From Escherichia coli (GTDB lineage Bacteria > Pseudomonadota > Gammaproteobacteria > Enterobacterales > Enterobacteriaceae), in NCBI RefSeq assembly GCF_050320075.1, contig NZ_CP190018.1: a DNA stretch of 64,000 nt, one strand, 5' to 3'. This document shows positions 1,556 through 52,071 of the stretch, one piece after another (within the stretch, counting starts at the first letter, position 1; each line of letters opens with the position of its first letter). The position numbers were made by a program, and so were the translations under genes. The notes below the pieces were generated by a model that was given only the letters and a program-made list of their open reading frames with translations, was not told the DNA's origin and did not search any database.

Positions 1556-2968
1556 TTACCAACCGGAGGATGAGGGAACGTATATTTCTGTTTCTTCGCG
1601 GACCAATGCCGGGCAATGCATACACATCATCAGCGCATCAGCCAGGTTAGGAGATGGAATACCGAGCTTCTGCTTCATTTCGACCTTAGTCATTAGCTCA
1701 AGCTTCCCGTTGTTATTGAATTTGCGCTGAATCTGCGTCAGTTCTGCAAACAGCTTCTCCAGCATCTTCTCGCCTATCGCTTCTTTGTCGAAGCTCAGCA
1801 TGTCGTCGGGGTCTGCATACTCACCGTGGACAACCGCCCGATATGTCAGATACAGCCTGTCAGCCAGCGCGTAATAGAATTGCGCTCGCTTATTGCGGAA
1901 TACATCGCCAATAGTGCGAACGTTGTCGCCCTGTACGACTTCATCAGCCCATGCTCCGGCCTGATAAGGCCCATCTTCATCGAATGGCGATTCGCTGCCC
2001 TTGAACATCGTGGCGGTAATTTTCTTGCCGGAGAATGCTTCCGTTGTCTGTCTGCGTAGCCCTGCACCGACACCATCGCCATCCCACAGGTAATGGTCAG
2101 CGCCGTCTTCAATCGCCAGCGAAGTAGCCCAGTCAGCACCCTCGTTGATGTCCATCAGCAGACCTTCGGCAATGCGCTTAACCACCGAACCGTGACGCGA
2201 TGCGTAACCTTTAGCATCTGGCCCTGTATCTGATGGATCATGTGCAGAGACAACAGCGCCTTTCGCTTTCCATCCGAGTTTCTTGTGCGCATCGGTTGCG
2301 GCTTCAAGCCATTCACGTTTGATGATTGCCATATCACTTGCGCTTACTGGCTCACCAAGCCAGATGTGACGATACAGTGTCGGGTTTCTGCGTTTACACT
2401 CTTCCATCTCCAGACGGAGAACTTCAGGAAAGTGCGGGTTGTCGGTGTAGTTCACCGTCAGCAGGCAAATATCATCTGGAGGATTTATGACGAATCGCTG
2501 ATAGGTATCGTCGAGAATGTTTTTCGGGTTAAAGCTCACCCATATTTCGGAAAACGGCTTGCGGATGGTTGGTATCAGGATATCCCATGATTCCTTCGTT
2601 ACCGCTTCCGCTTCCTCCACCCAGCAAATATCAATACCTTCTAGCGATTTAATCTTCGTCGGGTTGTTTTTGATGCCGTAGAACATGAATTCAGCATTCG
2701 TTCCGAGATGACGAATCATGGAACGCTGAATTTCAAACTCAGCCGAATAGCCTTCCCGCTCTATGGTGTCTTCAAGCAACCGGATTACCGAATCGCTGAT
2801 ACTGTTTTGCAGTTCACGAGCGCAGAGAATACGCACTGGCTGCCGACGCGCCGCTTCAACAAGCAGCCTCGCAATTGCCCATGACTTACCGCTACCTCGA
2901 CCGCCTTTGGCGACTTTGTAGCGATGCGCCTCAATGAACGGTTCAAAGATAGGATTAATCGAGGTCAT
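1556..2968 (-). CDS. Terminase large subunit (headful/pac type)
   Basis: 470 aa ORF with Walker A KGGRGSGKS near the N-terminus; matches Sf6/P22-family TerL from memory; sits between terS and portal. Confidence 0.9.
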   Translation of the reverse strand: MTSINPIFEPFIEAHRYKVAKGGRGSGKSWAIARLLVEAARRQPVRILCARELQNSISDSVIRLLEDTIEREGYSAEFEIQRSMIRHLGTNAEFMFYGIKNNPTKIKSLEGIDICWVEEAEAVTKESWDILIPTIRKPFSEIWVSFNPKNILDDTYQRFVINPPDDICLLTVNYTDNPHFPEVLRLEMEECKRRNPTLYRHIWLGEPVSASDMAIIKREWLEAATDAHKKLGWKAKGAVVSAHDPSDTGPDAKGYASRHGSVVKRIAEGLLMDINEGADWATSLAIEDGADHYLWDGDGVGAGLRRQTTEAFSGKKITATMFKGSESPFDEDGPYQAGAWADEVVQGDNVRTIGDVFRNKRAQFYYALADRLYLTYRAVVHGEYADPDDMLSFDKEAIGEKMLEKLFAELTQIQRKFNNNGKLELMTKVEMKQKLGIPSPNLADALMMCMHCPALVREETEIYVPSSSGW

Positions 2969-3405
2969 TTTCCGAATAGAGTGCTCATCGGTGATGTTTC
3001 AATCTGAATTGCGCCGCCGTCTTTGCCTGTTAGCTCGTGATCAACCTTGTCGCGCCATTTATCCTTCTGTCGGTTCTTAAGCCAGAAAATGGCAGCGGTT
3101 GTATCAGGCGGGTAATACTTCTCAAGCGGAGTTTCGACAATTCTGTTTTCAATAACACGAATATCGATATCTGGAGCCACGAAGCCCATAGCGCGTTGAT
3201 AAAGACGATCACTAACTTCTGCATCAGCGACGGCCTTACCCTTTTTTATGGACTCCGAAAACTTAGGATAATCAAGCTTCCACTTGTTAATAGTTGACTC
3301 ACTGACTTCAAAGAAATCAGCAAGTTCTGCATCGGTGTAGCCCAGCAAGCACAGTTTGCGTGCCTGTTCGGCATACGCCTCTTGATACTTTGTTGGGCGC
3401 GCCAT
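2965..3405 (-). CDS. Terminase small subunit
   Basis: 146 aa ORF overlapping the terL start by 4 nt; HTH-like N-terminus; position immediately upstream of terL. Confidence 0.7.
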   Translation of the reverse strand: MARPTKYQEAYAEQARKLCLLGYTDAELADFFEVSESTINKWKLDYPKFSESIKKGKAVADAEVSDRLYQRAMGFVAPDIDIRVIENRIVETPLEKYYPPDTTAAIFWLKNRQKDKWRDKVDHELTGKDGGAIQIETSPMSTLFGK

Positions 3406-3407
3406 GT

Positions 3408-3650
3408 TTATGCTCCGGTGGTGAACAGGTCTAACGCTTCCTTCGATTTACGCACCGCTTCGATAGTGCGGGTCGTGATATCCGAATTAGCGCCGCCTGA
3501 CTGGAAGTGAATTTTGAATAGCTCAAGCTTCAGCTCGTCAGTGCCAATGAACTGAAATGCTTCTTCTGCGGCTGCGTTCTGGTTCATGACCAGCTTGTAA
3601 ATCTCTAACTGGAATTTCTGTTCTTCAGTCATGGGAATAATCTCTGCCAT
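3408..3650 (-). CDS. Hypothetical phage protein upstream of terS
   Basis: 80 aa ORF, same strand, ends 3 nt before the terS start; no recognisable motif. Confidence 0.4.
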   Translation of the reverse strand: MAEIIPMTEEQKFQLEIYKLVMNQNAAAEEAFQFIGTDELKLELFKIHFQSGGANSDITTRTIEAVRKSKEALDLFTTGA

Positions 3651-3754
3651 TATTGGCTCCGTTTATCCGTTAAAAGGGATATCAGTTAAGTTATCCCGTG
3701 CAGGGTATAAGCCATTATCAAAGCCACTCTGTAGGGAATGGATTTTGTGATGGC

Positions 3755-3779
3755 AATAAAAAACCGCCCGTAGGCGGCA
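3755..3779 (-). terminator. Intrinsic terminator-like hairpin (GCCGCC-TACG-GGCGG followed by a U-run on the minus strand)
   Basis: Perfect GC-rich stem at 3764-3778 with an A-run on the plus strand (T-run on minus) at 3755-3762. Confidence 0.4.
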
Positions 3780-3890
3780 AAATTAATGTTTCGTAATTGC
3801 GTCAGATCATTAACCATAGTTATTGTGTAGCTGCTTTGTGTCGTTGGGGTGAACGACGAAAAAGCGAACAACATAATTAATGAGGTGACT

Positions 3891-4421
3891 ATGGAAGTCG
3901 AAAAAATGCTGGTCAAGGACCGGAAGTGTGGCTCTTGCTCAGTTTGCTGTGTTTCTTTGGCAATAGATGAGCCCGAATTGAAAAAAAAGCATGCGGTACC
4001 GTGTACCTATCTCAGGCCTCAGGGTGGTTGCTCGATCTATGCTGATCGACCGTCATTGTGCAAAACATGGCACTGCGGATGGCGGATGATGCCTTTCATG
4101 GGGCCTGCGTTAAGACCAGATCGGTCCAATCTCCTAGTGCGCTTCACGGGAGAATGTTGGATTTTCGGTGATGCTGACGACCAAAGGGAATCTGCATTAA
4201 TGAATAATGATACTTTAAACGCAATGAGCGCTCTGGTCTCGCGTAATATGAAAGTTTCAGTATCAGTTCCAACTAAGCCGGGTTATTGCGACGCTGAACA
4301 TGTCATCAATGATGATATTATGGAGGCGGTAAAAGAACGGTCTTTGTCAAAAGTTAAAGAAATAATTTGGACAGTAATTTGCCGGTGCAAAGTCTCCGCG
4401 ACCAACCCGCGAAAGCAATAA
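3891..4421 (+). CDS. YkgJ-like CxxCxxCC cysteine-cluster protein (putative Zn/Fe-binding), moron on the strand opposite the late genes
   Basis: ORF 3849-4421; preferred start is ATG 3891 preceded by GAGGTG; motif CGSCSVCC plus further Cys residues; opposite orientation to the flanking late operon. Confidence 0.6.
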   Translation: MEVEKMLVKDRKCGSCSVCCVSLAIDEPELKKKHAVPCTYLRPQGGCSIYADRPSLCKTWHCGWRMMPFMGPALRPDRSNLLVRFTGECWIFGDADDQRESALMNNDTLNAMSALVSRNMKVSVSVPTKPGYCDAEHVINDDIMEAVKERSLSKVKEIIWTVICRCKVSATNPRKQ

Positions 4422-5309: not shown

Positions 5310-5782
5310 ACCTCAATCTCTCTGACCGTTCCGCCAGCCTCTTTGAATTTTGCAATCAGGCTGTCAGCCTTATGCTCGAACTGACCATAACCAGCCCCCG
5401 GCAGTGAAGCCCAGATATTGCTGCAACGGTCGATAGCCTGACGGATATCACCGCGATCAATCATCGGCAAAGCGCCACGCTCCTTAATCTGCTGCAGCGC
5501 AACAGCGTCCTGGCTTTTGGGAGAGAAGTCTTTCAGTCCAAGCTGCTTGCGGTAAGCATCCCACCAACGGGAAAGAAGCTGGTAACGTCCGGCTGCTGTT
5601 GATTTGAGTTTTGGGTTTAGCGTGACAAGTTTGCGAGGGTGATCGGAGTAATCAGTGAATAGCTCTCCTCCTACAATGACGTCATAACCATGATTTCTGG
5701 TTTTCTGACGTCCGTTATCAGTTCCCTCTGACCACGCCAGCATATCGAGGAACGCCTTACGTTGATTATTGATTTCCACCAT
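5306..5782 (-). CDS. R: Endolysin, lambda R-type lytic transglycosylase
   Basis: 158 aa, [26 protein letters not shown]..., near-identical to lambda R from memory. Confidence 0.95.
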
Positions 5783-6089
5783 CTTCTACTCCGGCTTTTT
5801 TAGCAGCGAAGCGTTTGAGAAGCGAACCAATCGAGTCAGTACCGATGTAGCCGATGAACACGCTCGTTATATAAGCGAGATTGCTACTTAGTCCGGCGAA
5901 GTCGAGAAGGTCACGAATGAACCAGGCGATAATGGCGCACATCGTTGCGTCGATTACTGTTTTTGTAAACGCACCGCCATTATATCTGCCGCGAAGGTAC
6001 GCCATTGCAAACGCAAGGATTGCCCCGATGCCTTGTTCCTTTGCCGCGAGAATGGCGGCTAACAGGTCATGTTTTTCTGGCATCTTCAT
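5766..6089 (-). CDS. S: Holin, lambda S-type (dual-start MKMPEK)
   Basis: 107 aa, [35 protein letters not shown]..., lambda S-like. Confidence 0.95.
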
Positions 6090-6482
6090 GTCTTACCCCC
6101 AATAAGGGGATTTGCTCTATTTAATTAGGAATAAGGTCGATTACTGATAGAACAAATCCAGGCTACTGTGTTTAGTAATCAGATTTGTTCGTGACCGATA
6201 TGCACGGGCAAAACGGCAGGAGGTTGTTAGCGCGACCTCCTGCCACCCGCTTTCACGAAGATCATGTGTAGAAGGCCGCAGCGTAACTATCACTGATGAA
6301 TTCAGGATAGCCAGTGGCTACGGCTCAGTTTTGGTTGTGCTGTTGCTGGGCGGCGATGACGCCTGTACGCATTTGGTGATCCGGTTCTGCTTCCGGCATT
6401 CGCTTAATTCAGCACAACGATAAGAGCACTCGGTGCATTTAAGCCAAGCCCCATAAGGGAGAATGCTCTTACCTGTTGCACA

Positions 6483-6550
6483 GGTATAAAAAATCCCGAA
6501 ACCGTTATGCAGGCTCTAACTATTACCTGCGAACTGTTTCGGGATTGCAT
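6483..6550 (-). terminator. tR' late terminator (lambda-type)
   Basis: Minus-strand hairpin ATCCCGAAAC...GGTTTCGGGAT followed by TTTTTTATA; matches remembered lambda tR' sequence. Confidence 0.7.
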
Positions 6551-6679
6551 TTTGCAGACCTCTCAGCCTGCGATGGTTGGAGTTCCAGACGATACGTCGA
6601 AGTGACCAACTAGGCGGAATCGGTAGTAAGCGCCGCCTCTTTTTATCTCACTACCACAACGAGCGAATTAACCCATCGT
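6487..6679 (-). ncRNA. Lambda 6S-like short late transcript (pR' to tR')
   Basis: Interval between the pR' start region and tR'; ends are approximate. Confidence 0.45.
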
Positions 6680-6686
6680 TGGGTCA

Positions 6687-6715
6687 AATTTACCCAAGTT
6701 TATTCAAAAAGTCAA
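6687..6715 (-). promoter_or_regulatory. pR' late promoter (-35 TTGACT, 17-bp spacer, -10 TAAATT) with adjacent qut region
   Basis: Minus-strand TTGACT at 6715-6710 and TAAATT at 6692-6687; sequence tracks the lambda pR'/qut region. Confidence 0.65.
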
Positions 6716-6757
6716 TATTATGCCGTTAATATGTTGCCATCCGTGGCAATCATGCTG

Positions 6758-7381
6758 CTAACGTGTGACCGTATTCAAAATGTTGTCTGCGATTGACTCT
6801 TCTTTGTGGCATTGCACCACCAGAGCGTCATACAGCGGCTTAACAGTGCGTGACCAGGTGGGTTGAGTAAGGTTTGGGATTAGCATCGTTACAGCGCGAT
6901 ATGCGGCGCTTGCTGGCATTCTTGAATAGCCGACACCTTTGCATCTTCCGCATTCTTTCTCAACAACTATCCCCCACAGCTCTGTTTTTGATATATCAAC
7001 CGCACGGCCTGTACCGTGGCAATCTCTGCATCTTGCGCCCGGCGTCGCGGCACTACGGCAATAATCCGCATAAGCGAATGTTGCGAGCACTTGCAGTACC
7101 TTTGCCTTAGTATTTCCTTCAAGCTTTGCAACGCCACGGTATTTCCCCGATACCTTGTGTGCAAACTGCATCAGATAGTTGATAGCCTTTTGTTTGTCGT
7201 TCTGGCTGAGTTCGTGCTTACCGCAAAATGCAGCCATTCCGAATCCGGCTTGTGATTGCGCCATCCCCATAGCAGCCATCACATCAGTACCGGAAAGAGA
7301 GTCAGAAGCCGTAGCCCGTGGTGAGTCACTCATCATCGGGCTTTTTGGCGAATGAAATTTAGCTACGCTTTCGAGTCTCAT
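6758..7381 (-). CDS. Q: Late antiterminator Q (lambda type)
   Basis: 207 aa, MRLESVAKFHSPKSPMMSDSPRATASDSLSGTDVMAAMGMAQSQAGFG..., lambda Q-like including zinc-finger Cys residues. Confidence 0.95.
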   Translation of the reverse strand: MRLESVAKFHSPKSPMMSDSPRATASDSLSGTDVMAAMGMAQSQAGFGMAAFCGKHELSQNDKQKAINYLMQFAHKVSGKYRGVAKLEGNTKAKVLQVLATFAYADYCRSAATPGARCRDCHGTGRAVDISKTELWGIVVEKECGRCKGVGYSRMPASAAYRAVTMLIPNLTQPTWSRTVKPLYDALVVQCHKEESIADNILNTVTR

Positions 7382-7566
7382 GGCCTTCCCCTTTTGCCCT
7401 GCTTGACCATCAGGACGCCGTTAACTATTACGTGACGCTCGCCTTTGCTGTCTCGGTTGTACTTGAGCACTGTTCCTCTTGCGCAGGAAAGCATCCTTGC
7501 CACTTCGGTCTGATTGCCTCGTGTCTGGATAAGAAGCTCTGGTATCGTTTGAATTGTGGCGTTCAT
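7378..7566 (-). CDS. ninH: NinH-like small DNA-binding protein
   Basis: 62 aa; GNQTEVARMLSCARGTVLKY resembles lambda NinH; overlaps the Q start. Confidence 0.7.
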   Translation of the reverse strand: MNATIQTIPELLIQTRGNQTEVARMLSCARGTVLKYNRDSKGERHVIVNGVLMVKQGKRGRP

Positions 7567-7925
7567 GCGTTCTCCAGTTCGGTGATTTTTATTCCAAGCC
7601 TTCCGCCTGGTACTTTCACGCCACGAATTACGCGAATGTCATCGAATTGCTCGTCGTCTTCCGCAAATCCGGCGTGGATAAGGGAGTCGAGTAAACCTTT
7701 CAGGATGTTGTCGAGGTCGCGACGGCGGGAGTCCGGAACATCTACGATGACTTTGATGCGGAGTCGTGATTTGGTGAAAATGTCTAACTTAAGTTGGCGG
7801 ATGATTTGCTGAACGTCTTTTCGGTATTTCTGGCCTTTATCGCTGATGTAGTATTGGCTTCCCCGTCTTCGCCAGTAGGTGTTCAGCGACGGCGGGTATG
7901 GAAGCACAAACTGATATTCGTTCAT
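7563..7925 (-). CDS. rusA: Holliday junction resolvase RusA
   Basis: 120 aa; MNEYQFVLPYPPSLNTYW... with acidic catalytic residues; RusA family. Confidence 0.9.
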   Translation of the reverse strand: MNEYQFVLPYPPSLNTYWRRRGSQYYISDKGQKYRKDVQQIIRQLKLDIFTKSRLRIKVIVDVPDSRRRDLDNILKGLLDSLIHAGFAEDDEQFDDIRVIRGVKVPGGRLGIKITELENA

Positions 7926-23716: not shown

Positions 23717-23792
23717 TGGTGCCGATAATAGGAGTCGAACCTACGACCTTCGCATTACGAATGCGCTGCTCTACCAACTGAGCTATATCGGC
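23717..23792 (-). tRNA. thrW: tRNA-Thr (anticodon CGU)
   Basis: 76-nt minus-strand sequence GCCGATATAGCTCAGTTGGTAGAGCAGCGCATTCGTAATGCG...CGGCACCA with cloverleaf. Confidence 0.95.
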
Positions 23793-43978: not shown

Positions 43979-44005
43979 AACGGAGCCGAAAGGCTCCGTT
44001 TCTTT
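43979..44005. terminator. Bidirectional terminator between fadE and ivy
   Basis: CGGAGCC-GAAA-GGCTCCG followed by TTTCTTT. Confidence 0.5.
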
Positions 44006-44014
44006 ATCCGCTAA

Positions 44015-44488
44015 TTATTTAAAATTAAAGCCATCCGGATGGTTTTCCAGGCTGCCGGTCAACGCCGCGAACAGCACCGTTTTACCATCAATCGAAAGCG
44101 CATCGTTCACATTCAGCCAGGTGAGTTTCTCTTGCGACGTTTTCTCATCAATAGTCGAGAACAGCCCCGTCATCTGATTAGATTTCTCGGACCACATCAC
44201 AGCGATACGTTGCGAGCCACAGTCATGCGGTTTGCACGCGCTCATCACCTGATACGTCTCATCTCCCAACGTTACGGTTTGTGCGGGAGTATAAGTACCG
44301 CCTTTCATCACCCATGCAGGTAGCTTATGCCCTTGCACCATCTGATTAAACGCAGCTTTGGTGGTTTCGCCCTTTGCAAGGCTGCTAATGGTTAAATCAT
44401 CCTGCGCCATTGCACTGGTGGCGATGACCAGAGCGGCGACTGTCGTTATTGCCTTAAACATCATTCCTCCCGAGCTTATCCTGCCCAT
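44015..44488 (-). CDS. ivy: Inhibitor of vertebrate lysozyme Ivy
   Basis: 157 aa with signal peptide; MKGGTYTPAQT...CKPHDCGSQRIAVMW. Confidence 0.9.
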   Translation of the reverse strand: MGRISSGGMMFKAITTVAALVIATSAMAQDDLTISSLAKGETTKAAFNQMVQGHKLPAWVMKGGTYTPAQTVTLGDETYQVMSACKPHDCGSQRIAVMWSEKSNQMTGLFSTIDEKTSQEKLTWLNVNDALSIDGKTVLFAALTGSLENHPDGFNFK

Positions 44489-44641
44489 GTTATTAACCTC
44501 CTAAAGCCTGGCGATAACACGATAATTTGCAAATCAGATATTTCCAATATCAGCATTTGTTATCAATTTATTCTGCGCTAAGGCAACTGCCTGATAAGGT
44601 GTTAGAGTTATAAAACCCTTCGCATAAAGGAGTTGTACACC

Positions 44642-45412
44642 GTGTCTGGTTTGAAGATTACGCTTTTACAGCAACCACTGGTGTGGATGGATGGTCCTGC
44701 CAACCTGCGTCATTTTGATCGTCAACTGGAAGGTATTACCGGACGCGATGTGATCGTTCTACCGGAGATGTTTACCAGCGGCTTTGCCATGGAAGCGGCA
44801 GCTTCGTCGCTAGCACAAGATGACGTAGTGAACTGGATGACAGCCAAAGCGCAGCAGTGCAATGCGCTGATTGCAGGCAGTGTTGCATTACAAACGGAGT
44901 CTGGTTCGGTTAACCGCTTTTTGCTGGTTGAGCCGGGCGGCACGGTACATTTTTATGATAAGCGTCATCTGTTCCGCATGGCAGATGAGCATCTACATTA
45001 TAAAGCGGGCAATGCGCGAGTGATTGTGGAATGGCGCGGCTGGCGTATTTTGCCGCTGGTGTGCTACGACTTACGTTTTCCTGTGTGGTCGCGCAATCTC
45101 AACGATTATGACCTCGCCCTATACGTCGCCAACTGGCCTGCTCCGCGCTCTCTGCACTGGCAGGCATTGCTGACGGCCCGCGCGATTGAGAATCAGGCGT
45201 ATGTGGCGGGATGCAATCGCGTCGGCAGCGATGGCAACGGCTGCCATTATCGCGGTGACAGCCGGGTGATTAATCCACAGGGCGAGATTATCGCTACTGC
45301 CGACGCGCATCAGGCAACGCGCATTGATGCGGAGCTGTCGATGGTGGCGTTGCGGGAATATAGAGAAAAGTTTCCGGCATGGCGGGATGCGGATGAGTTT
45401 AGGTTGTGGTGA
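44642..45412 (+). CDS. yafV: Carbon-nitrogen hydrolase (omega-amidase) YafV
   Basis: Preferred GTG start 44642 after AGGAG; 256 aa. Confidence 0.9.
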   Translation: MSGLKITLLQQPLVWMDGPANLRHFDRQLEGITGRDVIVLPEMFTSGFAMEAAASSLAQDDVVNWMTAKAQQCNALIAGSVALQTESGSVNRFLLVEPGGTVHFYDKRHLFRMADEHLHYKAGNARVIVEWRGWRILPLVCYDLRFPVWSRNLNDYDLALYVANWPAPRSLHWQALLTARAIENQAYVAGCNRVGSDGNGCHYRGDSRVINPQGEIIATADAHQATRIDAELSMVALREYREKFPAWRDADEFRLW

Positions 45413-45463
45413 GTGGGTGTTGTGTTTAGGGGCGGGGTAAGACTACGGGTCAGGGCAAGATTA

Positions 45464-45831
45464 CGAAAGCCCGGAGCCTGTCCATCATTCTGTGTAAATG
45501 CCTTTCTCAGAAGTGACCGTCAAGGCGGTCACCGAACTCGATAATAAAGCGACTCATCCCTATCCGCCAGTCCTGAAGTGGCATCGTCCATTTTTGCGAC
45601 GCTGACTGGAAAGCCAGCCACACCACTTTTTTCACCGACTCATCTGTCGGGAACACTTTCCGTTTCTTTATCGCATGTGTGATGATGCTATTCAGCGATT
45701 CGATTGCGTTAGTGGTGTAGATAACCTTGCGGATCGCCTCCGGGTACACGAAGAATGTGGCAACATTCGGCCAGTTTGCCCGCCAGCTGCGACTTATCTG
45801 CGGGTACCGTGCATCCCATTCCTTCCCAGGG
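45464..45831 (-). mobile_element. IS256-family transposase remnant (C-terminal fragment only)
   Basis: ORF 45507-45749 resembles the C-terminal end of mutator/IS256-type transposases; bracketed by a 15-bp direct repeat AGATTACGAAAGCCC at 45449-45463 and 45832-45846. Confidence 0.55.
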
Positions 45832-45836
45832 AAAGA

Positions 45837-46958
45837 TTACGAAAGCCCGCTCCCCGCAAGGACTGACGCCAGATAGTTTCTGTCCATGGCTGCTTTTCGC
45901 ATCTTACGTCTTAACCCTGCCTTGAATACCTTATCATTCGTCAAAATATTAATAGCGATGTGCCGTATCCCTGAAAATAATTCTGCTGCGTTTCCTCTTC
46001 TTATTTTGCAGTCGTCTTCATTCATTACCACGTCCAGACGCCAGTGCAGCTTATTCTCCACGTGCCAGTGGTTTCGGATTGCTGTGGCGAACTTCTCTGC
46101 GGTTAAATCAGCAGAACTAATATAATATCTGACCGTCATTTCTGGCTCTTTCTTTTGTTCTGCTATTATTGACCGAAAGGAGACTGCCACGCATAATTTC
46201 TTCAGACCTTTCCATTCAAACGTGAAATCAATAAGTTCATCAGGGACATCGCAAACAATGTGAAGACGGATTTCTTCTCTGCCGTGACTCTTTTCACTCA
46301 TTGCGTAACTGTCATGCTCTGGATTATTTAATTCTTTCAGCGGAAATTTTTCCTCGAAGGCTTTATTTAGCCGCCCCTGGTTTCCTTTTACAGCGAATAA
46401 ATAATCACCTCCCTGTTTTTGTATCTTCTCTGCAATATCTTTCTGGCAACCCATCGCATCAGTTGTGATGATTTTTCCTTTAATATCCAGCATGTTAAGA
46501 AGTTCTGGGATAGCTATAATTTCATTGGATTTCTCATCCGTCCTGATCTGTCCGATGACCAGACTGTGCATTGTTGAGAACGCACTAATGACATGAATCG
46601 CTCCCTTGCGGCGACTCTTGTCATAAGAATGCCGGAGTGTTTTTCCATCAATTGCGATGACGTCTTTATCATCTGAAGTATGGCAATCTCGCATCCAGTT
46701 AATAAAGCACTCGTGAAATTTTGCAGGACTGATACAGGATACAACTCTGGCGATGGTATCGTGAACAGGAATACCATTTTCAAAATCACCGTATTGTTTT
46801 AAAAAATCGAGATGTGTTTCCCCAAAATCCTCTATATCTTCCCAACCTTCCGCACCCGAAATAACGGCACAAATAGTCAACAGTAGAATATCCGATAATT
46901 TATGTTCCACTTTCCAGGCTTGTCTGTAATCGGGGATAATAGAAATATGCCCCATCAA
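45837..46958 (-). CDS. ISAs1-family (H-repeat) transposase
   Basis: 373 aa; H-rpt/ISAs1-type transposase; directly downstream of an Rhs toxin-immunity pair. Confidence 0.85.
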
Positions 46959-47193
46959 TTTTTTAAGTTCTATTTTGTTCTCCTTAATTATGTAAGGAGT
47001 ATTTGATCATGTATAAGCAATAAAAAACAGCTTTAGGTAATGAGGAATATCTCAATTTTTAAACATAAAATGCGAATTATTTAGTACAAAAAAGCAGCGT
47101 TACGTGATCTTTCCCTGCACTTCACCCTAACTTTAATTTAACTTCAAGAAGTATTAAGGCCTCAATAGCGAACTTAATACTTCTTAAAGAATA

Positions 47194-47571
47194 TCACTCC
47201 TGACCAAAATCTTTCCACACTAATGCATGAGACTTTGATTTATCACCCAAAAATTTACTTACATCTTTCCAAAGTAAAGAATTGCTATCGGTCGCAGTGA
47301 CTATTGCCTCTATAAGCCCTGTAGCTACAACTGTGGCCAATTCATCATCAATCGAGACCATACCATCTTCGACATGTTTAAATATTTTTTCTCTTTCAAT
47401 ATCACCCATTTCATAAAAATTTTTTACAATCGTTTTTCCAATCTGAGAGAACAACATAACCACCGGTGGAGTTTCTGGATGCCAGTATTCATTAGCTAAT
47501 GAGACTGTCTCAGACAAAACAGTGGAAAACGATGCCATTTTTTCTATATAATTAGCAATATATTGGTTCAT
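47194..47571 (-). CDS. Putative immunity protein for the Rhs C-terminal toxin
   Basis: 125 aa, low-GC ORF starting at the Rhs stop; position is the only evidence. Confidence 0.5.
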   Translation of the reverse strand: MNQYIANYIEKMASFSTVLSETVSLANEYWHPETPPVVMLFSQIGKTIVKNFYEMGDIEREKIFKHVEDGMVSIDDELATVVATGLIEAIVTATDSNSLLWKDVSKFLGDKSKSHALVWKDFGQE

Positions 47572-50500
47572 TACTTGCCTCCCAAAGCATTCTGTAAATC
47601 CTGAAGAACGTTTTCTGCTGCTGCTCGATCCCCTGGAGATGCTGTTGGATTCTTATCCAACCAATCCTGTAAAGCCCTTGTATAATCCTGTGCTTTCAAT
47701 ACATGTCCTCTACCACCAACTTTTTCACCTGTGGCCAATTCATAACGAACAGCATCTGCTGTGCTTCCACTTCCTACTTTTGCATTTGGCCGATAAAGAT
47801 CGTCTATAATATTTTTCAAATTTGAATCTGTAACGTCAGGTTTTCCCATCTTCTGTCGCAATTCATCTTTATACCGTTCATGCTGCATACGATCTCTTGC
47901 GCTATTCTCATCTTCTGGTCCCCATCCTCCCGGGCTTCCCGTACTGCCACCACCCAGGCAGTTCTTCTCTTCCTCCGTCAAATCCTTCCCGACATTTGGA
48001 TTCTCTTTTGATGAATCATCATTTCCAAACACGCTGGAAAAAGCACCATAGGGATCTCGCCAGAATTCCATTTGACTTTGTGCATTTAATAATTCGGCTT
48101 CACCCTGCATCTCCATACTTTTCTCAATCGCGTCCCCAACAGCCTCGCGATTGTTGTATATTATTATACCACCACCAATAACCACCGTACCGACTGCCGC
48201 ACCGACTAACATCCCCGGAGGGCCTCCTACCGAACCGATCTCTGTACCTACTTCAGAACCAGTTCCCATGGCAGTTAATGCTCCTGCGCCCAACGCCGCA
48301 CTTAATCCCAGCGGATCCAGCCGTTGCACCGGGTTCAGTGGATACGCATACAGGTTCCATCCCCCCTTCAGCCCAATCGGATCCTGGGTGATATACCTCC
48401 CCTGTAGCGGGTCATAGTACCGGTGACGGTTGTAGTACAGCCCCGACTCCTCATCATACTGCTGCCCCGGCAGACGGAGTGACTGTTGAAGGTGCTGCGT
48501 GCTTTCCTCTCCCAGCAGGTTTCCCCACTCGTCATACTCCCCGCGCCACGCCGTTTCCCCTTCCGGGCTGATAAGCGCCTGCGGCAGCCCACGGTGGTCA
48601 CAGTGGTAAAGATGAAGTTTCCTCTCCGGGATGTATTCCGCCTCCAGTTGCGCCGCCATCTGTTCCGCCGTCAACCCACACTGTGCAAGCCACTGCTGGC
48701 TTTCTTCACTCACGCTGCCCTGCCGCAGTTCCCGCTCCAGCCTCCCCAGCATCACCGCCAGCTCCGCCGGTAGCGTCACACCCGTGTCCTCCTGCAACAC
48801 CTCCGCCAGGCTACGGTGCCGCGCCTTCGCCTGTTCGCCATTCTCTGTTTCGATTCTCAGGAGCGGCGTGAAGCTCCCCGGCTGGTATACCGTCTGGATA
48901 CGCGTGGTGTCGGTCTGTACCGTCGTCAGCCTGTCGCCGTCCCACCCGTACCAGGTCACCTCCGGTTTACGCGACAGCGACATCCACCCCGTCAGGTCAC
49001 GCTCCCGCCGCCACACCCGTTTTCCCGTCCGGCGGCCCAGCGGGTCATAGAGGTAGCGGCTCTCCACCTGTGGCTCGCCGTGCTGTATCCGCGTGTAGAA
49101 CACCAGGCGGTGCTGGCTGTCGTAATGGTAGTGGTGCGTCCGCTCGTCGTGCATCCGTATCACCCCTTCCGGGATACGGTCCGTCTTCTCCGCCAGCCTG
49201 CCGTATTCATCGTAGCGGTAGACATAGTGCGCATCTTCCGTGATGCGGTTATCCGGCCATGCCGTGAGGGTGCTGTCCGGGTGCAGTTCCGGGTCCGGCA
49301 GCCGGTTTCCTGCCGGGTCCGTCGCATACGGGATATCAATGTCCAGGTTCGCTGCCGTGGTGTGGACGCCCGTCAGCCTTCCCGTGTCGCTGTAACGGTA
49401 CTCCCGGCTCTCCTGCGGGCCGCTGATGCGAATTAGCTGTCCGTTGTCGTTCCAGTCGTAGTCACGGTCAAGCTGCGGAAGGTTCAGGTGCCTGCTCCGG
49501 AGCTGGCCGCTGGTATTCCAGGCGGTGGCAAGCTCATATGCCTCCCCGCCGAAGCTGCGGGCCGTCTCACGGTGCAGCCGGTCCCGCGTGTACTCGACCA
49601 GTGGCGTACCACCCAGCTTCATTCCCGCAAGATAACCGCTGCCATACGTCAGCCACTCCACCGGCGGCAGACCGTCCGGCTCCTGACGGGTCGCCAGCCC
49701 CTGTTCGCTGTACGCGTGCTTCGTCTCATGCTCCCACAGCATCTCCCCCGTCTCCGGGTTCTCCACCGTCTGCCGTTCGCCCGTCAGGCGGCCTTTATCG
49801 TCGTGGCCGTAGTGGACCGCCACACGGTGGCCTTCGCTGATATGGCTGATTTCTGTCAGCCAGCCGTGCTCATCATACTGCCACTGCTCCGCCGGGTCGC
49901 CGTTCACCGTCCGGTGCGTGATGCGGTCCGACGCATCGTAATGCCAGAGGGTGATAAGTCCCTCGTCTTCACTGTGGACAAGCTGCCCTGTGGCGCTGTA
50001 CCGGTAACGCTGCGTCCTGCCGTCAAAGCCGCGCTGCTCCGTCAGCCTGTCCACCGGGTCATACCGGAACGTGGACTGGCTGCCGTTCTCGTTGGTCAGC
50101 ACGGTGATGCGCCCGGCAGCGTCATACCCCATGCTGCGCGTCAGACCGCCTTCCGTCACACTCACCGGACGCCCGCGTTTATCATATTCGATGGTGCTGC
50201 GTTTACCGTCCGGTGATATCGTTGCTGTCAGGTCGCCTGCGGCGCTGTACTCATAACGGGTTTCACGCCCCTGCGCATCCTTCTGACTGACCAGTTGGCC
50301 TCGCGGGTTATAACTGCTGTAAGTGCTGATGCCTTCCTCCCGGTGAACGGCGATTTGTTGACCGTACCGGTCATACTCATACCGCGTCATGTACCCCGAG
50401 CAGTCCGTGAAGGCCCGAAGCTGACCGTACCGGTTTCGCGTTATTCTCCGCGTCACCCCGATTCCGTCTTCCACCGCGCCGGGCAGGCTACTGCGGGGGG

Positions 50501-50792
50501 AGTCATAAAACCAGCGCGTAATGTTACCGTTGCGCGAGATCTCTTCTGCCAGTCGGCCCTGACGGTCATATTTCCGGCTGCTGCGTAAACCATCCGGATA
50601 TGTCACTGAAGTCAGTTGCAACTGGCTGTTGTAACCATACCGTACCGTCCTGCCGTCCGGCAGTATCACTGAAGTCAGCTTTCCAGACGCCATATGCAGC
50701 CGGTACTCCGTCCGCCGTCCTGCCGCATCCGTCTGCGCCTTCAGCCTCCCCCGCCTCATCATACTCGCTGCGGGTGATGCTCCCGTCGGCAT
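47571..50792 (-). CDS. Rhs polymorphic toxin, core YD-repeat region and variable C-terminal toxin domain (downstream part of a frameshifted gene)
   Basis: 1073 aa; YD repeats; DPxGL boundary (RLDPLGL) then Gly-zipper segment and about 150 aa unassigned C-terminal domain. Confidence 0.85.
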
Positions 50793-52071
50793 GCTCCTTC
50801 TTCACCACACGCTTCAGGCCACCCCCGCCTTCCGTGTACAGCACCTCCCGCCGGTTCAGGCTGTCCGTGATGGTCACACGGTCCTGCCCGTACTCAAAGC
50901 GGTAGTCCAGCCCCTCCGGGTTGACCTGCTCCGTCACCCGCCCGGTATCATCATACCGGTAGCGGCTCTCCGGCCTCCCTGCATAATGGTGCGCCACCAT
51001 CCGCCCGGCGTGCTCCGCATCATAAGTAAACCCGCGCACCTGCGTCCCGCTGCGGTCATACACCGCCCGCAGTTCTCCGCTGGCCGTGTACGTATAGCGC
51101 GCCAGCGGCGCAGTCGGCTGTTCATCCGGGTATGCCGGGTCGTGTGTCAGCCACACCGCCTCCAGCCGGATACCGTTATCGGCACCGTATTCTGTACCGG
51201 CGGGCAGCGTATCGGGGAAAACCTGAGAAGAGGAAACAGAACGGGGACCGGCTGGAGAAGATAAAGAAGAGGCGCGCTGTTTACGGAAGGCTTCCGCCCG
51301 CTGCGCCTGCGTGCTCAGCGCCAGGTGAAAACAGCGGCCCGCGCCGTCCGTCACCCCCGTCACCGCACCCGCCACGTCACCCTCTGCCGCCCGGTGGAAG
51401 GCCAGCGTCCGCCCGAAGCCGTCCACCACGCCCGTCAGCACCCGGTATGCGGGCGGCTCCGGCGGCAGCACCTCGTCCGCCCCCGGCACCCGCTCCGGCC
51501 AGCCGAGCACCAGCCACTGCCCGGTTGTGCTGGCAGCCATCATATAGATGTGTGGACTCAGACGGACCGCTTCCGGCAACGCCCGCCAGAGCCGCGCAAG
51601 CGGGTGGCCTTTGTGCTGTTTCAGCACCCCGCACCGCGCCAGCCAGAACGACTCGCTGCGGCTGTAGCTTATCTCGCCGGGAAACAGGGGTTCAAAGTGA
51701 ATGCTCCTGCCGCCGCTGTCGTTGAGTATCAGGCCTTCATCGCGTATCTGTAAGCGGATATCGAAGGGGGCTTTCCAGCCGGGACCAAACCCCCCCACCG
51801 GCGCGGGCGTCCTGGTCCGGTAGCTGCTGTAGGCGCGGAAAAGAACAAACGGCAGCGGGCCGGACAGTGCCAGGTCGGTTTCAGCAGGCAGCACCTTCGC
51901 TCCCAGCAGCGGGTTTACCGGATTGCCATATTTCGGCGTGGCTTCCCCTGTGGGACACACCGAGCAGGCCACACCGGTTGGCGCACCTATCAGCACCCCT
52001 GCTGAACCCTGCACAATATCCAGTCCCTTGCGGGTCATGTCACCCTGCCGCGCCGCCGGTTTTCCACCCAT
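50566..52071 (-). CDS. PAAR-domain N-terminal part of the Rhs effector (upstream part of the frameshifted gene)
   Basis: 501 aa starting [13 protein letters not shown] (PAAR-like); overlaps the downstream ORF at 50566-50792 in another frame. Confidence 0.8.

Follow-up and report, generated by a model that had tools for sequence, protein, structure and literature searches.

That H-rpt elements lie downstream of Rhs tips is a classical finding, and island edges commonly carry nested IS scars. Locus b0215-b0221 is already on record as an Rhs/T6SS site (PMC3032704), and transposition of H-rpt has reportedly never been observed (PMC3032704). When compared with the H-rpt/ISEc1 elements of E. coli Rhs loci, the copy present in the 64-kb stretch of E. 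coli chromosomal DNA analysed here, hereafter the window, has the same length, the same termini (CAGGG...CCCTG) and a single DDE transposase. It likewise lies just downstream of an Rhs toxin/immunity pair, but its terminal inverted repeat (IRR) abuts an IS256 fragment and not host DNA. That fragment resembles IS1414 and a 1313-bp relative (e.g. the nudI copy, plasmid pN51a) in its terminus and in the sequence of the transposase C-terminus, but only the last 353 bp are kept in the window. In K-12 the yafF pseudogene has the same position and orientation right after yafV and marks the corresponding edge of the aspV-yafV variable region; there, however, the H-rpt tip is diverged (CGGGGTATTACTACG...), there is no IS256 fragment and the T6SS/Rhs island has been lost. 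An IS1414 insertion at ydcC provides a further comparison. Its orientation is the same as that of the fragment in the window but it lies 31 nt, rather than 23 nt, into the IRR end of an H-rpt. Complete, flanked by a target site duplication (TSD) and found at another locus, it would represent the undamaged first step of the process proposed below.

We consider it very likely that the window contains a nested IS scar where the aspV-yafV T6SS/Rhs island borders on yafV, and that the direct repeat which first drew attention to the region is the IRR of H-rpt/ISEc1. The original prediction of an insertion/deletion scar is borne out in that nested IS remnants, including a truncated IS256, are found at the island edge. 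The two IS pieces already carry PGAP annotations in an identical genome, and the scar itself is ordinary. The main gain is a corrected anatomy, in which the repeat is the inverted-repeat tip of the neighbouring element, not a footprint of the fragment that it brackets.

The gene order in the window is fadE, ivy, yafV, the IS region, a small gene overlapping the Rhs stop, Rhs, VgrG, Hcp and the T6SS core. The yafV gene (44642-45412, plus strand), encoding a 2-oxoglutaramate amidase according to RefSeq annotation of an identical strain and a Pfam CN_hydrolase match, is the final conserved core gene ahead of the island edge. On the right-hand side of the IS region are found Hcp, VgrG, TssB/C/F/G, an FHA-domain protein and the Rhs gene, so the IS remnants do sit, as had been proposed, at the edge of the island between yafV and the Rhs/T6SS genes. 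The Rhs core/toxin gene (47571-52071, minus strand) is split into two overlapping ORFs, 47571-50792 (1073 aa) and 50566-52071 (501 aa). RefSeq describes it as 'frameshifted' in the identical strain, and it is intact in strain TUM1886, which carries the same immunity gene. The putative immunity gene of the window, so named from its position, is a 125-aa gene (47194-47571, minus strand) overlapping the Rhs stop codon; in Pfam it has only a weak, sub-threshold match to DUF7674. Between its stop and the far end of the H-rpt is a hairpin with a 17-nt stem, 94% complementary, and a 14-nt loop (47142-47189), possibly an operon terminator. An Rfam scan of positions 44000-48000 gave no match. The sole tRNA in the window is a tRNA-Thr(CGT) at 23717-23792, presumably thrW, while aspV, the far boundary of the island, lies outside it.

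The H-rpt/ISEc1-like element is a complete 1291-bp member of the ISAs1 family (45827-47117, minus strand), with IRR at 45827-45851 and the opposite inverted repeat, IRL, at 47093-47117. A repeat search shows these arms to be 25 nt long, 80% complementary and 1241 nt apart. The same limits emerge from comparison with ISEc1 copies elsewhere (ydcC, yhhI, ybfD and others), homology to which ends at 45826/7 and 47117/8. Identity to the ydcC ISEc1 is 97.4% (1257 of 1291 nt), and the transposases are identical at 372 of 379 aligned positions (378 codons and the stop). The transposase ORF (45837-46973), labelled 'ISAs1 family transposase' by RefSeq/PGAP in the identical genome, matches both DDE_Tnp_1 and its N-terminal associated domain in Pfam (PF13808, E=2e-33; PF01609, E=2.5e-29). 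Its description as intact-looking proves only partly right: with 378 codons it is full length and has no internal stop, but where ISEc1 has its ATG start, right after an AAGGAG ribosome-binding site, the window has ATA (46971-46973). The next in-frame starts are TTG at 46956-46958 and ATG at 46953-46955, and the transposase may be poorly translated from an ORF that is otherwise intact. A search for a TSD around the element found its flanks, CATTCCTTC and CACTTCACC, to be unrelated, so that a simple insertion cannot be shown. The missing duplication fits a copy that has been rearranged rather than one newly inserted, and has no bearing on the family assignment.

Between yafV and this element lies the right end of an IS1414-related element of the IS256 family (45474-45826, minus strand), with an intact IRR terminus, GAGCCTGTCCATCATTCTGTGTAAATGCC, at 45474. 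The claim that a C-terminal transposase fragment is present here is fully supported: the last 105 codons and the stop of a Mutator/IS256-type transposase are encoded at 45507-45824 on the minus strand, and match Pfam PF00872 (Transposase_mut) at profile positions 299-377 of 379 (E=3e-18), that is to say at the C-terminus only. The length given for it, about 370 bp, requires revision to 353 bp. The fragment is 96-98% identical to a 1313-bp IS256-family relative, 96% identical to the copy on plasmid p1RM9088 and 82-83% identical to IS1414; in a strain that is 100% identical to the window over 45250-47250, RefSeq labels it 'transposase, incomplete, missing N-terminus'. Its right terminus was set by convergence on GAGCC of three differing flanks in other records and that of the window. 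In addition, all strong matches among 5,426 complete E. coli genomes to a chimeric query, comprising the yafV spacer, the tip described below and more than 353 bp of the IS256-like element, start exactly at the base corresponding to 45474. The inner end of the fragment, by contrast with this terminus, results from a break within the element, at position 353 of 1313, and there it meets the H-rpt terminus exactly, save for an ambiguity of a single nucleotide (C at 45827). Complete copies of the relative are 1313 bp long with an 8-bp TSD (TAAAACCC). The remainder of the element was sought throughout the 64-kb window and is absent. What is left, 27% of the element, is not a full element of around 1.3 kb with a TSD of 8-9 bp: the left end, the TSD and the catalytic region are all missing, making the fragment, as judged from its sequence, a dead remnant not able to move.

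The direct repeat around the fragment is real, the 15-mer AGATTACGAAAGCCC occurring exactly twice in the whole window, at 45458-45472 and 45834-45848; the positions originally reported for it, 45449-45463 and 45832-45846, were displaced by 9 and 2 bp. A repeat search lengthens it to 23 nt, of which 22 match, with sharp limits on both sides. Copy 1 (CAGGGCAAGATTACGAAAGCCCG, 45451-45473) and copy 2 (CAGGGAAAGATTACGAAAGCCCG, 45827-45849) are 376 bp apart with the IS256 fragment between them. Copy 1 matches, without a difference, nucleotides 1-23 of the canonical ISEc1 IRR at ydcC. In copy 2, the IRR of the adjacent element, position 6 is A where the canonical base is C, and the sequence runs unbroken into the body of the H-rpt, with its inverted partner at the other end of the element (47093-47117). 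The same 23-mer begins ISEc1 at unrelated loci. The repeat is the IRR of the ISAs1-family H-rpt/ISEc1, present twice, with copy 1 an orphaned tip of H-rpt 38 bp past the end of yafV; after nucleotide 23 of this tip the sequence turns into the IS256-like terminus. It had been suggested that the repeat belonged to the IS256 fragment it brackets, which is not the case, since both copies are H-rpt IRR sequence. Membership of a longer host repeat family unrelated to the IS had been named as grounds for rejecting the prediction; a longer family does exist, in the form of H-rpt ends with several copies per genome, but it is that of the neighbouring IS and not an unrelated host repeat.

Immediately upstream of copy 1 is a possible remnant of an older H-rpt tip, CGGGGTAAGACTACG (45436-45450). 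All of its 15 positions agree with the beginning of the diverged H-rpt tip after yafV in strain LHM10-1, and 14 of the 15 with the tip in strain GPEC1337; it is followed by GGT and then by the canonical 23-nt tip. It represents either a further, third layer of H-rpt end, older than the others, or the product of an 18-bp tandem duplication. The former would hint at a still older round of the same process.

Strains differ considerably at this locus. The arrangement of the window is found in 259-276 of the 5,426 complete genomes (about 5%). In strain 4848, as in K-12, the H-rpt directly after yafV has a diverged tip, and IS256 sequence is absent. Around 270 bp of H-rpt are left in K-12, annotated as yafF, so that the comparison with this island-free strain, which had been recommended for defining the boundary, indeed finds the same edge, marked by that remnant. 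An O169:H41 strain has a tip/IS256 junction identical to that of the window followed by just 8 bp of IS256 (GAGCCTGT) and then a complete H-rpt (5 genomes), while in GPEC1337 a tip of 57 nt is followed by 77 bp of an IS256-like end that differs slightly, and then by a complete H-rpt (38 genomes). LHM10-1 combines a 41-nt tip with a complete 1313-bp IS256-like element, lacking both a TSD and an H-rpt body. In EH08-18-36 the tip/IS256 junction of the window leads into IS1 and the island is deleted up to aspV, and in STEC1585 a complete H-rpt tip is preceded by around 185 bp of unrelated AT-rich DNA. Intact IS1414 copies with 8-bp TSDs are seen within the H-rpt of EEC_W5 (TCCATGGC) and, at ydcC, 31 nt inside the H-rpt tip of WP5-S17-ESBL-10 and four other genomes (CTCCCCGT); TUM1886, which is otherwise of the window type, has a further IS1414 within the fragment, likewise with an 8-bp TSD (GAACTCGA). 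THO-008 has two H-rpts in direct tandem at the yafV edge, 21 bp apart, the spacer being a piece of diverged H-rpt. In the same strain, at record positions 5449-7917, a yafV-edge H-rpt contains a group II intron (ltrA), in agreement with the reported use of Rhs IS elements as homing targets by E. coli group II introns (PMC3522654). In APEC O2-211 (record positions 2501-4295) a second Rhs locus, at 1.73 Mb, has an H-rpt whose IRL adjoins some 500 bp of this IS256-like right end; this junction is not base-precise, around 5 nt being unassigned, and on its other side is an orphan Rhs fragment. To the right of IRL (from 47118 in the window), the sequence differs from the first base in every strain compared, so that the H-rpt end forms a sharp homology boundary of the variable Rhs toxin/immunity cassette.

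The proposed history begins with a resident H-rpt beside yafV, as still seen in K-12 (the yafF remnant) and in many of the sampled strains. An IS256-like element would then have inserted into its IRR end, at a depth of 23 bp, and oriented like the intact IS1414 that lies 31 bp inside the ydcC H-rpt. In a third step a complete H-rpt end would have been placed inside the IS256-like element, at its position 353. This might have come about through transposition of an H-rpt into that element followed by homologous recombination with the broken downstream H-rpt, or through an adjacent deletion mediated by an H-rpt end; by either route around 960 bp of IS256 would have been lost and the 23-nt tip stranded. 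We infer this order, the third step being proposed from the anatomy of the junctions. Base-precise joins of the H-rpt terminus are seen with IS256 position 8, 77 or 353, depending on the lineage, and elsewhere with other sequences, which makes an event defined by the transposase at the H-rpt end the most economical explanation. A collapse through recombination is plausible since direct tandem H-rpts 21 bp apart do occur at the yafV edge. The predicted intermediate, with the 23-nt tip, more than 353 bp of the IS256-like element and a broken H-rpt, was present in none of the 5,426 genomes, in which no match to the chimeric query crosses the tip junction. The reciprocal junction, in which the left end of IS256 would be followed by AAAGCCCG and the rest of the H-rpt, was sought and not found at yafV; the search did recover the intact analogue at ydcC and a second IS1414 insertion in a window-type strain. 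Single nucleotide polymorphisms along five H-rpt copies are reticulate, with no clear two-parent mosaic. Weighing against the third step, too, are the loss of the ATG start in this copy and the reported lack of any observed H-rpt transposition. Ectopic gene-conversion repair of a broken H-rpt was also considered and is rejected, as it would drag in donor flank whereas in several independent variants the junctions coincide exactly with the IS terminus.

Of other origins for the repeat itself, a chance match without common ancestry has its short length and nothing else to commend it. Set against the 0.16 matches to the 15-mer expected from shuffling, even with two mismatches tolerated, are two exact occurrences, the extension to 22 matches in 23 nt and the fact that both copies match the ISEc1 end, and we attach practically no weight to coincidence. 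The interpretation implied by the original prediction, namely that the repeat is a TSD or insertion footprint of the IS256-family element, can point to the two copies flanking the fragment 376 bp apart. We nevertheless judge it extremely unlikely. The relatives of this element generate 8-bp duplications, as seen in all four of the sequences given above, whereas the repeat is 23 nt long; the fragment has an element end on one side only, the other being an internal break; and both copies belong to another IS, the second continuing into the H-rpt and having its inverted-repeat partner there.

Other possibilities accept the same parts but assemble them differently. The second junction may have been produced by an adjacent deletion, in which the H-rpt transposase brings the IRR of the downstream H-rpt to attack a site in IS256 intramolecularly, with no new insertion or homologous recombination. 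In favour of this are the precise joins to different IS256 positions at this locus, the constancy of the left tip/IS256 junction in two of these cases, the H-rpt without a flanking TSD, the existence of tandem H-rpts at the locus and also the junction of IRL with an IS256-like fragment at the second Rhs locus, imprecise though that is. Yet the H-rpts of the variants with 353 bp and 8 bp of IS256 differ at 43 of 1291 positions, so that neither is a simple deletion derivative of the other. Adjacent deletions are typical of replicative transposition, which the ISAs1 family is not known to use, and there is no established transposition chemistry for its elements. On balance we view this route as rather unlikely, though worth keeping in mind. 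Alternatively, the block of tip, IS256, H-rpt, immunity gene and Rhs C-terminus may have been recombined in ready-made from another strain or Rhs locus. The strain-specific sequence to the right of IRL indicates that Rhs-tip cassettes are evidently exchanged along with their H-rpt, and an IS256-like fragment adjoins an H-rpt at the second Rhs locus too. There, however, the H-rpt has the opposite orientation and a different IS256 flank. Furthermore, the 23-nt tip is joined to the yafV spacer in all 259 genomes that have the junction, and also in variants with other right-hand structures, which argues that the tip/IS256 junction belongs to this locus. Import of the scar therefore appears improbable, and a nested scar formed in place around the end of a resident H-rpt is the explanation we favour.

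For a scar formed in this way no function is evident. A role for the orphan tip as a promoter or terminator of yafV was considered, with nothing found in its support. The true edge of the island can now be placed at the H-rpt tip 38 bp after yafV, which is the edge kept by K-12 as yafF, and the different junction states could act as cheap lineage markers.

The same junction states may also be read as indirect evidence of past activity of H-rpt ends which, together with a possible insertion hot spot, is the sole mildly novel lead to emerge. IS256-family insertions are found in different strains and loci at positions 23, 31, 41, 57 and around 64-72 of the H-rpt IRR, four of the five in the same orientation, in a sample subject to ascertainment bias since the queries were centred on the H-rpt tip. 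We therefore suggest only tentatively that H-rpt/ISEc1 may have been repeatedly active at this locus and that IS1414-like elements may favour the first 72 bp or so of its IRR end as a target. If both were true, H-rpt ends would be active recombination anchors, helping to reshuffle Rhs toxin/immunity cassettes.
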